From Alphaproteobacteria bacterium (lineage in GTDB: Bacteria > Pseudomonadota > Alphaproteobacteria > Rs-D84), in assembly GCA_017534945.1 (NCBI GenBank), contig JAFXVB010000026.1:65034-129033 (forward strand): a stretch of DNA of 64,000 nt, given 5' to 3'. The position numbers were made by a program, and so were the translations under genes. Below, one piece after another: positions 16,728 through 43,337 of the stretch. How positions within the stretch are numbered: the stretch's first letter is position 1; each line of letters starts with the position of its first letter. The notes beneath the pieces are model-generated. The model was not told the origin of the DNA, did no database searches, and was given only the letters and a program-made list of their open reading frames with translations.

Positions 16728-18500
16728 ATGAACTTATTTGATTCTTGCTTTTTATGCCTTGATATCGGGACCAGTTGCGTTCGTGGAATCGCGCATCGCG
16801 TTTGTTCGGCCAAGATAGTTCAATCTGCAACCGCAATGTGCGATAATTTTAATCAGCAATTCGCCGTAAAATCTGTTATTGATAATTTAGAACACGAATT
16901 AAAAACACACTTTGAATCCGCATACATAACCGGAAATTTTGGTGCCACAGAATATCTTCGTCCGCGTCAAAATACACTTTGGAACGGCGAACACAAAATT
17001 ATGGGCAAAGATATCGGTTCTCAAATTTCCAAGATTGCATTTCCAGACGGTTTTTCACCAATTCACATTATGCCACTGCAATACGACACACCGTCTGCGC
17101 GGCGTATAAAAACACCGATTGGATATACCGACCATCAATTAATATCTACATTTGGTGTAATTTGTTATGAAACAGAAAGATTAAACGAAATCGTATCAAT
17201 CTTACACAAAGCACACATCCAATATGACGGTTTATTCGACCCACATTATTTACAAAACATGACTTTACGCAAACCCGGTGAAACCGTATTGTTCATTGAC
17301 CTGGGGGCTGAATTTTCAAGCATATCAATTTGGAACGACAATGGTGTTTTATGGCATAAAAAACTAGAAATTGGTATGTCAAATATCACAATGGATTTAT
17401 CGAATTCTTTGCATATTGATTTTGATGAAGCCGAAAGAATAAAACGCATGACGGCAAATTTGATACCACGCGCGATGGACCGCATGGTTCCCGCGGACAC
17501 CGCATACGATTTTTCGCGTGGCGATGTGAACGATGTGATTGTTCCACGTGTTGTTGAAATAATTGGAAAAATCAAAGATGCCGCCGCCGAACATGTATCA
17601 CAATGTAATCCTACAAAAATTATAATCAGTGGTGGCGGAACACAAATTGACGGTGTTGTTGATTTTGTTGAAAACGCATTTGGATTACCTGCTGAAAATC
17701 ATCATGCCGACGCAACCATAACTGCATTATCTAATTATGTATGGGACGCGCAAAAATATGCCCGCGAAAAATATCTGGAACGCAGTGCACGCCACGAAAA
17801 AATCATAAATAAAATTGCAAAATTATTTACAAGAAAACATAAAACAAAAAAACCAAAATTCATACCAATTGCGCCATCGACATTATGTTTTAACATGTTG
17901 AATCCTTTAACATATAAGATGTTTGAATCCGGTGGCATATCAACAATACATGTTGATATTATGGACGGATTTTATGTGGATAAAATTGCTGGTGGAATCC
18001 CCGAATTAAAAACAATCCGTAACAACACACGCGCACATTTGCATGTCCATTTAATGACAGAAAATCCATCTATTTGGGCGGCGAACGCGATAAAGGCGGG
18101 TGCCGACACAATCATTTTATCATTGAACACATCTGGGGTTCGTGCGGCTTTGCGTGGGATTCGTGCAACCGGTCGCCGCGCTGGTGTTGCAATAAATCCA
18201 AACACACCATTGTCTGCATTGGTGCCAATATTACGCGATGTTGATGAAATTATGGTAATGGGTGTTATGCCGGGTGCCGCCGGTCAAACATTTAATCCAT
18301 CTGTATTGCAAAGGATATCGACACTATACACAACACGCAAAAAACATGGATTAAAATACATAATATCTGTGGACGGTGGCATCAACCCAGAAACCGCACA
18401 ACAATGTTGGGCATCTGGGGCGGATTTATTGGTATGTGGTTCTTACCTTGCCAAATCAAATGACTTTCCATTGGCCGTACAAAGTTTATTAAAAAAATAA
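16728..18500 (+). CDS. FtsA-like actin-fold protein fused in frame to ribulose-phosphate 3-epimerase
   Basis: N-terminal part: CLDIGTSCVRGIA, FIDLGAEFSSISIW, IIISGGGTQIDGVVDFVENAFGLPA (FtsA). C-terminal part from about 17866: IAPS, HVDIMDGFYV, HVHLMTENP, VMGVMPGAAGQ, SVDGGIN (Rpe). No stop codon separates the two. Confidence 0.65.
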   Translation: MNLFDSCFLCLDIGTSCVRGIAHRVCSAKIVQSATAMCDNFNQQFAVKSVIDNLEHELKTHFESAYITGNFGATEYLRPRQNTLWNGEHKIMGKDIGSQISKIAFPDGFSPIHIMPLQYDTPSARRIKTPIGYTDHQLISTFGVICYETERLNEIVSILHKAHIQYDGLFDPHYLQNMTLRKPGETVLFIDLGAEFSSISIWNDNGVLWHKKLEIGMSNITMDLSNSLHIDFDEAERIKRMTANLIPRAMDRMVPADTAYDFSRGDVNDVIVPRVVEIIGKIKDAAAEHVSQCNPTKIIISGGGTQIDGVVDFVENAFGLPAENHHADATITALSNYVWDAQKYAREKYLERSARHEKIINKIAKLFTRKHKTKKPKFIPIAPSTLCFNMLNPLTYKMFESGGISTIHVDIMDGFYVDKIAGGIPELKTIRNNTRAHLHVHLMTENPSIWAANAIKAGADTIILSLNTSGVRAALRGIRATGRRAGVAINPNTPLSALVPILRDVDEIMVMGVMPGAAGQTFNPSVLQRISTLYTTRKKHGLKYIISVDGGINPETAQQCWASGADLLVCGSYLAKSNDFPLAVQSLLKK

Positions 18501-23460: not shown

Positions 23461-23487
23461 ACCCGCCATTTTGGCGGGTATTTTTTT
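23461..23487. terminator. bidirectional rho-independent terminator
   Basis: ACCCGCC-ATTTT-GGCGGGT is flanked by an A-run upstream and a T-run downstream. It lies between convergent genes. Confidence 0.7.
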
Positions 23488-25258
23488 AATTTTTCTTTCT
23501 TATTTGAATATGAACATCGCGTAATTGTTGTTCGCTTACCTCATTTGGCGAACCCATCAACAAATCTTGTCCGCGTTGGTTTGCCGGAAAGGCAACGATT
23601 TCACGAACACTGTCGCCGATACCCAAAATTTCGGAAACAACGCGTTCAATACCAAACGCACAACCGCCATGCGGTGGCGCACCATATTGGAACGCAGTAT
23701 ATAATCCAGAAAAGTTTTTCTCTACCGCTTCCAATGGATATCCTGCAATTTCGAAACATTTTTTCATAACTTCTGGATTATAATTACGAAGTCCCCCACT
23801 ACAAATTTCGATACCATTCAAGACCATATCGAATTGTGCAGCCTTAATAGTGAACGGGTCGCGTGTTGATAATTCTTCGATTGAATCCACAATTGGATAT
23901 GAAAAAGGATTATGTGTAAATGCCGGCGCACCACCCCTTTCTTCATCTGGTTCAAAGAACGGGAAATTATCGACCCAGCAAAATGCGAAATCGCGTGGCT
24001 TTATCAAACCCAAATCTGCACCCAATTTATTACGCAATTTACCGGCGGCCTTGGCGGCATTATCCACCATATCGCACACAAAGAACAAAGAAGAATTATC
24101 ACCTGCAATTGCGTGCAATTTTTCAATGCGTTCGGCATCTAACTTTTTTGCAACAGGCCCCTTTGGTTCATCTGCAAAAACGATATACCCCAATCCACCA
24201 AGTCCCAATTCGCGCGTTGCATATTCGCCCAACTTATCAAACCAAGAACGCGGGCTAGAAGCGGATGCCGGTGCCGGAATCGCACGCACAACGGCGCCAC
24301 TTTCAATTGCATTTGCAAAGATTCCAAATTCAGACCCGCGGAAAATTTCCGTCACATCACTGATTAAAATAGGATTACGCAAATCTGGTTTATCACAACC
24401 ATATTTTAACATTGCATCATCAAATGATATATGCGGGATTTCCGGATAAACATTTGCATCCGGCGCAAAAGTTTTCACCATTTCCGGCATAATTGCTTCG
24501 CCAACGGCTTGGATATCTGGCAAATCAACAAAAGACATTTCCATATCTAATTGATAAAATTCCAACAATCTGTCGGCGCGCAAATCTTCATCACGAAAGC
24601 AAGGCGCAATTTGGAAATACCGGTCAAAACCCGACACTTGCAACATTTGCTTAAACATCTGGGGTGCTTGGGGCAACGCATAAAATTTACCATGATGCAA
24701 ACGCGATGGCACCAAGAAACTGCGTGCGCCTTCGGGTGAATCCGCGGTAAGCAATGGTGTTTGAAATTCAGAAAATCCCAAATCCCACATTTTATCGCGC
24801 AACCATTTCATCATTTTATTACGCATCAAAATATTGTAATGCAACCGTTCACGCCGTAAATCCAAGAAACGATATTTATAACGCAATTCTTCACTTGTTT
24901 CTTCGTCCCCGAACACTTGGAAAGGAAGTATTTCGGCATTTGTTAACACATTTACTTTTTCCGCCTTTATTTCAATATGCCCGGTTGGGATTTTATCATT
25001 AATTGCGTCCGCATCACGCGCGACAACTTTGCCTGTAATTTGAATCACAGATTCCGGACGAATTTTTTCCAAATTTTCATCGCCCCCATCAAACACACAT
25101 TGTGTAATTCCATAATTATCGCGCAGGTCAATAAACAACAAAGACCCATGGTCGCGCTTACGATGAACCCAACCTGCCAAAGTCACAGTTTCACCGACAT
25201 TACCAATATTCAATTCACCGCAAGTATGCGTTCTGTATTTTGATTTTAAAGATAACAT
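23486..25258 (-). CDS. aspS: aspartate--tRNA ligase
   Basis: YRTHTCGEL, FIDLRD, FYQIAPCFRDED and GLDR-like motifs. I placed the start at MLSLKSKY, which has an AAGGGA Shine-Dalgarno. The 52 upstream codons in the ORF track cover a T-box-like leader. Confidence 0.9.
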   Translation of the reverse strand: MLSLKSKYRTHTCGELNIGNVGETVTLAGWVHRKRDHGSLLFIDLRDNYGITQCVFDGGDENLEKIRPESVIQITGKVVARDADAINDKIPTGHIEIKAEKVNVLTNAEILPFQVFGDEETSEELRYKYRFLDLRRERLHYNILMRNKMMKWLRDKMWDLGFSEFQTPLLTADSPEGARSFLVPSRLHHGKFYALPQAPQMFKQMLQVSGFDRYFQIAPCFRDEDLRADRLLEFYQLDMEMSFVDLPDIQAVGEAIMPEMVKTFAPDANVYPEIPHISFDDAMLKYGCDKPDLRNPILISDVTEIFRGSEFGIFANAIESGAVVRAIPAPASASSPRSWFDKLGEYATRELGLGGLGYIVFADEPKGPVAKKLDAERIEKLHAIAGDNSSLFFVCDMVDNAAKAAGKLRNKLGADLGLIKPRDFAFCWVDNFPFFEPDEERGGAPAFTHNPFSYPIVDSIEELSTRDPFTIKAAQFDMVLNGIEICSGGLRNYNPEVMKKCFEIAGYPLEAVEKNFSGLYTAFQYGAPPHGGCAFGIERVVSEILGIGDSVREIVAFPANQRGQDLLMGSPNEVSEQQLRDVHIQIRKKN

Positions 25259-25428
25259 TTTGGTCCCTTTTTTTTTCGGCACCAAACAAAAACCAGATTT
25301 GGCACCAACATTACAACTTTCGGGGCGCGAATATACCGCGCGGTGCCACCCGAATTTATCACTCGTACATTGGGTTTTGTTGCCTCCATGGTTGTCAGTC
25401 ATATCAACGGCCACGCGCCCTTAAAAAC
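25259..25428 (-). promoter_or_regulatory. T-box-like leader RNA (Asp) upstream of aspS
   Basis: On the minus strand, AAAUUCGGGUGGCACCGCG matches the T-box consensus. It folds as UUCGGG / bulge UGGCACC / GCGCG-GUAUAUU-CGCGC / CCCGAA. GAC triplets lie in an upstream hairpin. Confidence 0.6.
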
Positions 25429-25434
25429 AAGATA

Positions 25435-25463
25435 ATTTTAATCACAAAAAATTGAATTTGCAA
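25435..25463 (-). promoter_or_regulatory. sigma70-like promoter for the aspS leader
   Basis: On the minus strand, TTGCAA, a 17-nt spacer, then TAAAAT. Confidence 0.4.
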
Positions 25464-25481
25464 GTGAATTAAAAATATATT

Positions 25482-25805
25482 TTATCGACTGATTCTGTCC
25501 AAAACGAACCGAAACCAAGATATATGCTCGTAAATTTGCCCACTGGATTGCAAAGCCCTGATATATTCGGCCGCCGCAGATTTCAATGATTTCACCTTTT
25601 GTTCACCCAACTCTTGCGTTTTATTTTCATAATATTGCGCAACAAAATCCTGACACAAACCCGTTTTTTCAATTTGATGGATATTCATAAAACTTTCAAC
25701 CAATCGCGCATATTGTTCTTGTTTTTTCTGCTTACGCGAACGATTTTCATCTTCTCGTTTTTTATCCTCAATCAATCTAGCAAATTTTTTATTTATATCA
25801 ATCAT
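25482..25805 (-). CDS. hypothetical protein (107 aa)
   Basis: ORF immediately downstream of the 740-aa repeat protein on the same strand. Confidence 0.4.
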   Translation of the reverse strand: MIDINKKFARLIEDKKREDENRSRKQKKQEQYARLVESFMNIHQIEKTGLCQDFVAQYYENKTQELGEQKVKSLKSAAAEYIRALQSSGQIYEHISWFRFVLDRISR

Positions 25806-29694: not shown

Positions 29695-29768
29695 GCCCTA
29701 ATAGTCTAGTGGTAAAACACGTCCTTGGTAAGGACGAGTCGCAAGTCCGATTCTTGCTTAGGGCACCA
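29695..29768 (+). tRNA. tRNA-Thr (GGT)
   Basis: Acceptor GCCCTAA/TTAGGGC; anticodon stem CGTCC/GGACG with loop TTGGTAA; encoded CCA. A terminator hairpin follows at 29782-29803. Confidence 0.8.
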
Positions 29769-42959: not shown

Positions 42960-43283
42960 TTATTTGGCACAATCATAAACACGCGCAGTCATCAAATATT
43001 TATATTCTGGCCCAAACATAACCCAAGTATTTTGAACTGTTTCATCGCGTTCCAACCAAAACACATTACCGGTTTTATTTTGTTCTGCGATACGATTTTT
43101 CAAATATTGAATTGCGTCATCATGGGAATACACAGACGCTTCTGCATCTAACTTATACAAATAAGTGCAATTTGATGGCGCAGATTTCACCATCATCAAA
43201 CTATCACTATTATTTTCTGGTTTAATTGCATGCGTACACGCCGCCAAAGCACCAACCGCACAAATTAAAAATATTTTTTTCAT
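42960..43283 (-). CDS. small lipoprotein
   Basis: Lipobox GALAAC after MKKIFLICAV, and a conserved C-terminal Cys (VYDCAK). Confidence 0.5.
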   Translation of the reverse strand: MKKIFLICAVGALAACTHAIKPENNSDSLMMVKSAPSNCTYLYKLDAEASVYSHDDAIQYLKNRIAEQNKTGNVFWLERDETVQNTWVMFGPEYKYLMTARVYDCAK

Positions 43284-43337
43284 TTTTTCCTCCTTGTCCC
43301 ACAAAGCCTTGGCGAAGTGGGATTCCTTTTTAATTGG

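Follow-up and report, generated by a model that had tools for sequence, protein, structure and literature searches.

A probable T-box-type tRNA sensor, reduced to about 100 nucleotides, in the aspS leader of Enterousia-like Alphaproteobacteria

The 64,000-nucleotide stretch of alphaproteobacterial DNA analysed here (GenBank assembly GCA_017534945.1, contig JAFXVB010000026.1, positions 65,034 to 129,033; hereafter the window) carries on its minus strand the gene aspS, which starts with an ATG at 25258, ends at 23486 and encodes a bacterial-type aspartyl-tRNA synthetase (AspRS) of 590 amino acids. The subject of this study is the leader in front of that ATG, which a preliminary description made from the sequence had read as a T-box riboswitch, and which, according to the analysis below, very probably contains a T-box-type tRNA sensor of unusually simple construction. 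The gene product matches the AspRS structures of E. coli, Mycobacterium, Pseudomonas and Thermus at E values of about 1e-130 in a comparison with the PDB and contains the Pfam domains PF01336, PF02938 and PF00152; the PDB comparison gave no sign of a horizontal origin of aspS, with several phyla being equidistant. The features discussed in the text are collected in Table 1.

The T-box core that the preliminary description had placed on the coding strand was recovered exactly as quoted: the 39-nucleotide (nt) sequence AAAUUCGGGUGGCACCGCGCGGUAUAUUCGCGCCCCGAA lies at 25357-25319 (-), 61 nt upstream of the aspS ATG, and its antiterminator fold, with two helices separated by a 7-nt bulge and closed by a 7-nt loop, is the one originally drawn. 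The motif GGGTGGNACCGCG occurs once in the 64-kb window, against an expectation of 0.00 from 100 shuffles, while a second T-box-like core, GGTGGAACCGC near 58434, is a looser match inside mrdA and was discarded as a chance occurrence. The Rfam model of the T-box, RF00230, recognizes the element in part: a local search returned 25318-25485 (-) at 28.7 bits (E=1.2e-4), and no match was obtained in the window at the gathering threshold of 93 bits. In a diverse sample of nine relatives, the same model gave 26-31 bits in five and nothing at E<=0.1 in the remaining four. When the leader is aligned to the model, the T-box sequence AAnnnGGGUGGnACCGCG and the antiterminator are placed at high posterior probability, and about 90 model positions of Stem I together with all of Stems II and III are deleted. 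With scores of only 26-31 bits, and four of nine relatives missed, routine annotation cannot see these elements.

For comparison we used the 80 closest aspS loci listed, one genome per species, which together with the window provide 81 leaders. The AspRS proteins of these relatives are 73-95% identical to that of the window, and all 80 loci come from gut or rumen metagenome-assembled genomes labelled Candidatus Enterousia, Alphaproteobacteria or 'Rickettsiales', where Enterousia is listed in the NCBI taxonomy as Alphaproteobacteria incertae sedis; the window organism is a Candidatus Enterousia-like gut or rumen alphaproteobacterium. The preliminary description had pointed to related aspS leaders as the place where conservation and covariation should be sought, and both were found there. 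The element of about 100 nt is present upstream of aspS in 81/81 of these Enterousia-type leaders, and GGGTGGCACCGCGC precedes the aspS ATG by 63-165 nt in 80/80 loci. From the aligned leader region we constructed a covariance model (R1), which finds one copy in the 64-kb window, at 106 bits with the next best match at 12.8 bits, and a single strong copy in each locus, scoring 78-117 bits. No further copies were detected by R1 in the window with filters off, nor any besides aspS in the 80 loci of 7.7 kb each; a weak match at L008:277-375 was rejected as a gene end with a terminator. The gene pheS, a classic T-box target in Firmicutes, is found in the window at 62012-62980 (+) without a T-box-like leader, and, within this part of the genome at least, the aspS element thus seems to stand alone.

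Beyond this group, a protein homology search with AspRS gave proteins 88-93% identical, that is, close relatives only, and the most divergent AspRS sequences among the relatives (L058 and L078) still fall within the Enterousia radiation. A rigid pattern in which hairpin and T-box were arranged in the same way, but with a discriminator base other than C, had at least 120 matches in metagenomes; those listed were all ordinary Firmicutes-type T-boxes or coding sequence, and R1 matched none of them, so there is no sign of sister elements among them. One locus of the comparison set, L063 (contig CAVGNU010000015.1), is labelled Bacteroides fragilis; its leader hardly differs from that of L054, its aspS shares 76% identity with the window's, and the contig is probably mis-binned or a contaminant in its assembly.

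The structure was tested on an alignment of the 81 sequences, with pairing partners slid by 1-3 columns and 500 shuffles serving as controls. On the structure as written, 89.6% of the cells pair, compared with 36-57% when the partners are slid, and the covariation score is 0.446 against 0.18 in the shuffles, none of the 500 reaching the observed value. RNAalifold, run without a supplied structure, gives the same four helices. In the lower helix of Stem I, compensatory changes are seen at all six pairs, with five to six pair types at each. This helix leads into a kink-turn (K-turn) whose layout of C-stem, 3-nt bulge and G.A/A.G pairs appears, from the sequence, to be that of canonical Stem I; its GA is present on the 5' side in 81/81 leaders and on the 3' side in 78/81. 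Above the K-turn, a 3-bp helix that covaries between AU, GC and GU at one pair and between UA and CG at another carries an apical loop of nine nucleotides. If the first and last of these are read as a closing non-canonical pair, mostly A.C, with G-C and U-A in some genomes, the remaining seven follow the pattern Y-Y-[R-A-C]-R-[A/C], which is the format of a tRNA anticodon loop (C-U-GAC-A-A in the window). The GUUG/CAAC hairpin that the preliminary description had proposed at this place is not a conserved pairing and was rejected for want of covariation, which favours the K-turn, the AUG/CAU helix and the 9-nt loop.

Loop positions 4-6 hold the candidate specifier, which is GAC in 69/81 leaders and AAC in 12/81, with no other triplet found, and the base that follows is a purine in all 81, in agreement with the canonical rule that a conserved purine follows the specifier (PMC7583486). 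On a neighbour-joining tree of AspRS, the first codon position has switched between G and A about ten times and positions 2 and 3 not at all, and the loop positions flanking the specifier vary freely. Reading the loop in another frame (as ACA, as CAA, or from the first GAC at 25400-25398) was rejected, since this gives codons that are inconsistent across the relatives or that fit neither the gene nor the discriminator. As AAC is a codon for Asn, its presence in 12 leaders makes the tRNA presumably sensed either tRNA-Asp or tRNA-Asn. GAC and AAC are the codons of the two tRNAs charged by a non-discriminating AspRS, and most alphaproteobacteria make Asn-tRNA by the indirect route. The indirect pathway is summarised in PMC2494555. 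The variable base of the T-box bulge is C in 81/81 leaders, which predicts a tRNA with a G73 discriminator. This base is usual in bacterial tRNA-Asp and tRNA-Asn. The Asp specificity originally claimed thus survives in the prevalence of GAC and in the fit of UGGC to G73, and has to be widened by the 12 leaders with AAC, with the second GAC being the specifier; a sensor specific for Asp and Asn tRNAs is, in our judgement, highly likely.

Stem I is joined to helix A1 of the antiterminator by 14-18 unpaired nucleotides with the consensus AAAAGU[G/A/U]AUAA, including two invariant A residues. In canonical T-boxes, a purine string RRRxG...AA flanks Stem III (PMC7583486), and judging from the sequence the AAAGU-N-AUAA of the linker seems to retain these flanking purines, as if Stem III had been deleted down to 2-4 nt. 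The core of the antiterminator is invariant in 81/81 leaders, and the outer pairs of A1 covary (CG/UA/UG at one and AU/CG/GU/GC at the other). The basal pair of A2 is G-C in all 81, so that the G.U wobble of canonical T-boxes is absent; a G-C pair is also found at this position in the canonical metagenomic T-boxes L102, L109 and L135. In a subgroup of the leaders (L007, L011-L014, L016, L017, L020, L021, L023, L031, L040, L041, L051, L052, L065 and L076), the A2 loop (GAAAAAAUCUUA) has a complement, UAAGAUU, immediately 3' of the antiterminator, located in the leader regions, around 2900-2960 in most of these loci. Either a pseudoknot involving the antiterminator or an alternative helix could result, and this complementarity lies outside the model proposed below.

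Table 1 Features of the aspS leader and gene in the window (positions are those of the window; where two ranges are paired, the 5' strand of the transcript is given first)
Feature	Position	Strand	Basis
Candidate sigma-70 promoter TTGCAA-17-TAAAAT, weak	25435..25463	-	9/12 consensus match
Reduced Stem I	25372..25420	-	Covariation and RNAalifold
Weak outer pairs of Stem I, GGG/CCC	25420-25418 with 25374-25372	-	Alignment
Lower Stem I helix GUGGCC/GGCAAC, six pairs	25414-25409 with 25384-25379	-	Covariation
K-turn: bulge GUU, GA, opposite GA	25408-25406; 25405-25404; 25386-25385	-	Conserved G.A/A.G
3-bp helix AUG/CAU	25402-25400 with 25390-25388	-	Covariation (AU/GC/GU; UA/CG)
Apical 9-nt loop ACUGACAAC	25399-25391	-	Alignment
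Candidate specifier GAC (25396-25394) and 3' purine A (25393), in 7-nt loop	25393..25396	-	Alignment
Single-stranded purine-rich linker ending in AGUGAUAAA	25355..25371	-	Consensus; no helix predicted
T-box antiterminator/antisequestrator	25319..25354	-	RF00230 alignment and covariation
Antiterminator helix A1, UUCGGG/CCCGAA	25354-25349 with 25324-25319	-	Outer pairs covary
T-box bulge UGGCACC, 7 nt	25348-25342	-	Invariant
Antiterminator helix A2, GCGCG/CGCGC; loop 25336-25330	25341-25337 with 25329-25325	-	
Segment 2 UUGGUGCCAAAUC, core GGUGCC 25306-25301, then A 25300	25296..25308	-	Nearly invariant
Segment 3 GUUUGGUGCCGA, C-rich, variable, candidate anti-Shine-Dalgarno	25276..25287	-	Pairing with segment 2 and Shine-Dalgarno
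Shine-Dalgarno AAAGGGACC (GGGACC 25267-25262) and aspS ATG (25258-25256)	25256..25270	-	Direct sequence reading
aspS, presumed regulated gene, bacterial-type aspartyl-tRNA synthetase	23486..25258	-	PDB similarity and Pfam

Between the antiterminator and the ATG, the window and 79 of the 80 relatives carry two further conserved segments, designated 2 and 3, and G-rich and C-rich segments alternate. Among 71 distinct sequences, the core of segment 2 (GGUGCC, then A or G) is nearly invariant, and it remains frozen while segment 3, its partner in a hairpin, drifts. Both of the GGUGCC copies reported in the preliminary description exist, at 25306-25301 and 25283-25278, which is 1-2 nt away from where they had been put. 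Their complementarity to the T-box bulge, noted at the same time, was borne out and may matter for the mechanism: the invariant UGGCACC and GGUGCCR can pair at 7/7 positions, with pairing possible in 91% of the cells. Segments 2 and 3 pair in 85% of the cells (40-53% with slid partners), in a hairpin of -14.4 kcal/mol on average (-13.2 in the window), with modest covariation that comes nearly all from the side of segment 3; the mean for the antiterminator is -15.0 kcal/mol. Segment 3 can also pair with the Shine-Dalgarno (SD) sequence, at a mean of -8.5 kcal/mol (-10.2 in the window); in this calculation, made without segment 2, 78/80 leaders have a paired SD. Segment 3 fits its own SD better, at -7.66 kcal/mol, than the SDs of other genomes, at -6.64 (0/5000 permutations reached the observed value). 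The SD sequence class varies together with segment 3, as in the co-occurrence of GGCAUCC with GGGUGU, UCGCC with GGCGA, and CGCCC with GGGCG. A site search of the leader found nothing resembling a terminator, which agrees with the original observation that a canonical one is missing.

Segment 2 has a further potential partner besides segment 3, and there are two candidates for it: the bulge, and the 3' strand of the antiterminator (GCGCC), which is likewise invariant and can pair with segment 2 in 95% of the cells at a mean of -8.7 kcal/mol. Two conserved positions of segment 2, C87 and R88, help to distinguish them. Pairing with segment 3 is missing for C87 in 22/71 sequences and for R88 in 11/71, and both positions lie beyond the reach of GCGCC; in the bulge, C87 can pair with G in 71/71 sequences and R88 with U in 69/71. 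Their conservation despite being often unpaired in the hairpin and inaccessible to GCGCC therefore favours the bulge as the second partner. The GCCA/GCCG end of segment 2 looks, at the level of sequence, like a built-in mimic of the tRNA acceptor end.

Our interpretation is that the leader, which together with its expression platform measures about 165 nt, is probably a minimal riboswitch of the T-box type that senses uncharged tRNA-Asp or tRNA-Asn and controls the translation of aspS. What the data above establish is a hairpin, supported by a K-turn, that exposes GAC or AAC and the following purine in a 7-nt loop like that of an anticodon, and an antiterminator that displays its UGGCACC bulge about 45 nt further downstream. 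In this proposal, the anticodon GUC or GUU of the tRNA would pair with the loop, and the 3' end of an uncharged tRNA, G73-C-C-A, with UGGC. A loop-loop (kissing) contact between two loops of the anticodon type would be a plausible compensation for the missing domains. Control would be exerted on the SD, via the three downstream segments and free of any terminator; we lean towards an output at the level of translation. The proposed switch is a kinetic one. Segment 2 would be transcribed before segment 3, and the seven free bases of an empty bulge would capture it, leaving segment 3 to pair with the SD and turn aspS off, whereas a bulge filled by uncharged tRNA would leave segment 2 free to form the strong hairpin with segment 3, opening the SD and turning aspS on. 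Capture by the bulge, as opposed to the antiterminator 3' strand, is the more tentative part of this scheme, and we give it somewhat less than an even chance. Kinetic co-transcriptional control has been established for the translational ileS T-box (PMC12647780).

A number of observations weigh against this proposal. The first concern binding, for which the element lacks parts reported as necessary: when Stem I is truncated, hardly any tRNA is bound in the absence of Stem II, and an antiterminator that has no Stem III shows no appreciable tRNA binding (PMC7583486). The 3'-aminoacyl group is described as being sensed mainly by the G.U wobble at the A2 base (PMC7583486); this pair is G-C in 81/81 leaders here, a replacement shared by some canonical T-boxes. 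Neither the window nor the 80 loci contain genes for tRNA-Asp or tRNA-Asn, and G73 is presumed for these genomes from what is usual in bacteria. Other objections are energetic. The ON fold (antiterminator plus 2:3 hairpin) comes to about -29 kcal/mol and every OFF fold considered to -17 to -24, making the ON fold the ground state by 5-12 kcal/mol in nearest-neighbour energies; the accessibility of the SD in a constrained partition function goes only from 0.36 to 0.24-0.28 between the modelled states, with no change between them in the window sequence; and implausible long-range pairs dominate the whole-leader folds, both minimum-free-energy and partition-function. With A1 and A2 intact, moreover, the bulge could not accommodate a full 7-bp helix, and what seems sterically plausible is about 4 bp, as with tRNA, or a fold in which A1 is melted. 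Finally, one leader, L078 (298-363), does without segments 2 and 3 altogether, having 63 nt from the T-box core to the ATG; if it is regulated, it must use a different, simpler output.

The same tRNA sensor could instead operate a canonical switch, in which, when uncharged tRNA is absent, GCGCCC, the antiterminator's 3' strand, leaves it to pair with GGGUGC of segment 2, forming the homologue of a terminator or sequestrator helix while segment 3 sequesters the SD; with tRNA, the antiterminator would hold, segments 2 and 3 would pair, and the SD would be open. This has the appeal of being the direct analogue of the alternative helix of all known T-boxes (PMC7583486, PMC12647780). The alternation of G-rich and C-rich segments is as in classical attenuator relays, and the required helix of 5-6 bp is possible in all sequences, counting 95% of the cells. 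Since both strands are invariant, covariation cannot test the pairing, and the helix, at the mean given above, is considerably weaker than the antiterminator that it has to replace (-8.7 versus -15.0 kcal/mol), whereas the terminator or sequestrator is the more stable fold in known T-boxes (PMC12647780). It also leaves the conservation of C87 and R88 unexplained, and we regard a canonical switch as unlikely.

One could also speculate that a T-box-type sensor is coupled to an output other than SD sequestration, with tRNA binding acting on transcript stability, Rho access or the loading of ribosomes at a standby site, and the 2:3 hairpin being, for example, a constitutive stabilising or processing structure; alternatively, the sensor might be weak or decaying. 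The small state-dependent change in SD accessibility in the thermodynamic models would fit such a reading, as would the existence of L078 without segments 2 and 3, and the tolerance, in eight leaders, of a 31-nt hairpin between segment 3 and the SD. A non-SD output does not account for the better fit of segment 3 to its own SD than to others, nor for a segment 2 that is frozen beyond what a mere hairpin needs, and the leader has no terminator or other recognisable output signal; decay is excluded by the strict conservation of the sensor in 81/81 leaders. We consider this family of explanations quite improbable.

Much less likely still is an operator bound by AspRS itself, in an autoregulation by molecular mimicry as known from E. 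coli thrS, with the apical loop mimicking the anticodon loop. The loop C-U-G-A-C-A-A does have the anticodon-loop format, and it differs mainly at the middle base from the anticodon loop of tRNA-Asp, which we take to be CUGUCAC. It contains, however, the codon GAC or AAC in place of the anticodon GUC or GUU, and so lacks U35, an identity base for AspRS. The G/A toggling that tracks codons would find no explanation, nor would the invariant T-box bulge and antiterminator matched by the Rfam T-box model, and it is the codon in the loop together with the unexplained bulge that makes such an operator unlikely. A coding origin, as an N-terminal extension of AspRS read from a GTG at 25414, or a chance resemblance to a T-box is hardly credible: the window leader (25259-25414, minus strand) is indeed an open frame in register with aspS, and the database has AspRS entries of 600-623 amino acids (P0002, P0023, P0031, P0079), where gene callers have apparently extended aspS into the riboswitch, but the 156 nt before the ATG contain in-frame stops in 77/80 relatives, the spacing from T-box to ATG is uniform modulo 3 (29/28/23), the N-terminal residues of PDB AspRS chains align from residues 7-9 of the query onward, the motif expectation is 0.00 per window, and base-pair covariation is a signature of RNA.

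Compared with known T-boxes, the element of Enterousia is smaller than any architecture considered sufficient. Its Stem I ends in the specifier loop, so that the distal platform of interdigitated T-loops (AG bulge and distal loop) is absent; in the 81-leader alignment and by RNAalifold, the stretch from Stem I to the antiterminator offers no room and no conserved helix for Stem II or the IIA/B pseudoknot, and a Stem III helix is missing from the 14-18-nt linker. The preliminary description had likened it to the short ileS T-boxes of actinobacteria, a likeness that holds for the apical specifier loop only, since Stem II, IIA/B and the Stem III helix are missing here as well. In the translational ileS T-boxes of Mycobacterium and Nocardia, with their 'ultrashort' Stem I (Sherwood et al. 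2015, as summarised in PMC7583486; PMC12647780), the specifier likewise sits in an apical loop above a K-turn, there is neither an elbow-binding distal platform nor an intrinsic terminator, the bulge lies between A1 and A2, and the target is an aminoacyl-tRNA synthetase, with an output that here presumably also acts at the SD. These ileS T-boxes, however, need the S-turn of Stem II and the IIA/B pseudoknot to hold the codon-anticodon duplex (PMC7583486) and keep Stem III, none of which is found in the aspS element. Their sequestrator is more stable than the antisequestrator and its 3' strand pairs with the SD region directly, whereas in the aspS leader the SD has its partner in the separate segment 3, and the antiterminator is more stable than the direct alternative helix. 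Specificity (Asp/Asn) and phylum differ as well.

The glyQS T-boxes of Bacilli, which lack Stem II and IIA/B, were the simplest natural architecture known before. The aspS element shares with them the absence of a Stem II domain and a K-turn followed by a flexible single-stranded linker to the discriminator, but has none of what glyQS keeps, namely a long Stem I with an elbow-binding platform of interdigitated T-loops, Stem III and a transcription terminator, and it does not rely, as glyQS does, on a G/C-rich GGC:GCC duplex. From the family as modelled in RF00230 it retains the T-box sequence, the antiterminator and recognisable AGUG...AA purines flanking the position of Stem III, and it departs in scoring 26-31 bits against a gathering score of 93 and in having G-C in place of G.U as the basal A2 pair. 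With the core features of a T-box present, the Rfam threshold unreached and four accessory-domain features lacking, the aspS element appears to be a new minimal T-box variant and is not a canonical leader.

The promoter TTGCAA-17-TAAAAT of the preliminary description is present in the window at 25463-25435, and its standing is weakened by a consensus match of just 9/12, a quality at which shuffles of this AT-rich leader region yield 2.5 sites. The site is not kept as such in relatives, many of which have a tRNA-Thr gene directly upstream instead. In these, no more than about 8-20 nt separate the end of tRNA-Thr(GGU) from Stem I of the aspS leader (L053:2754-2827, and likewise L060, L067-L070, L074, L077 and L079), which leaves no room for a promoter, and the leader is therefore probably co-transcribed with the tRNA and freed by tRNA processing. 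In the window, the tRNA-Thr gene is elsewhere, at 29695-29768 (+), and an open reading frame (ORF) of 107 amino acids precedes the aspS leader.

Several aspS leaders (L010:2954-2985, L032:2954-2984, L037:2957-2986 and L004:844-875) have the 31-nt hairpin mentioned above, AUCCCACUUCGCCAAGGCUUYGUGGGAC, as an insertion that separates segment 3 from the SD. The hairpin is also found in the window itself at 43293-43323 (-), directly 5' of AAGGAGG, the SD of a small ORF that begins at 43281 and is lipoprotein-like, and from its sequence it looks like a dispersed 5'-UTR (untranslated region) hairpin module. Elsewhere, the window holds an alphaproteobacterial-type addB and ordinary chromosomal genes, and an ORF of 590 amino acids at 16728-18500 (+) that combines an FtsA/PilM-like N-terminal part with a C-terminal part of ribulose-phosphate 3-epimerase, either as an unusual fusion or as two genes joined by a mechanical ORF call.

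T-boxes are textbook regulators of Gram-positive bacteria. They have been placed in Firmicutes, Actinobacteria, Chloroflexi and Deinococcus-Thermus, and in two deltaproteobacteria, Geobacter and Pelobacter, upstream of leuA (PMC2494555, PMC3766115), and for the T-box database the translational class was sought only within Actinobacteria or among Rfam-detected sequences (PMC7778990). The literature searched contained no earlier report of a T-box in alphaproteobacteria, the full-text matches for both terms having neither in title or abstract. In its fullest form, our reading would make the aspS element the smallest natural T-box so far and the first alphaproteobacterial T-box lineage, with a sensor of about 100 nt consisting of a kissing loop and a bare antiterminator, an acceptor-end mimic (GGUGCCR) that competes with the tRNA 3' end for the bulge to set an anti-SD relay, and a specifier alternating between the two substrates of a non-discriminating AspRS. 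We hold this combination to be possible and, as a whole, doubtful; if it is true, an expression platform with an acceptor-end mimic would be previously undescribed.

A conserved T-box in a widespread alphaproteobacterial lineage of gut and rumen widens the known range of this regulator, and the aspS element shows that curated models miss divergent members. The toggling between GAC and AAC ties the specificity of the riboswitch to the indirect Asn-tRNA pathway. The structural lesson weighs more than the extension in range: strong purifying selection keeps an element with neither Stem II nor Stem III, in the face of the structural requirements set out in PMC7583486. If its binding of tRNA is true, the element would define the true minimal needs for tRNA decoding and aminoacylation sensing by RNA, and would offer an attractive compact scaffold for engineered tRNA sensors.

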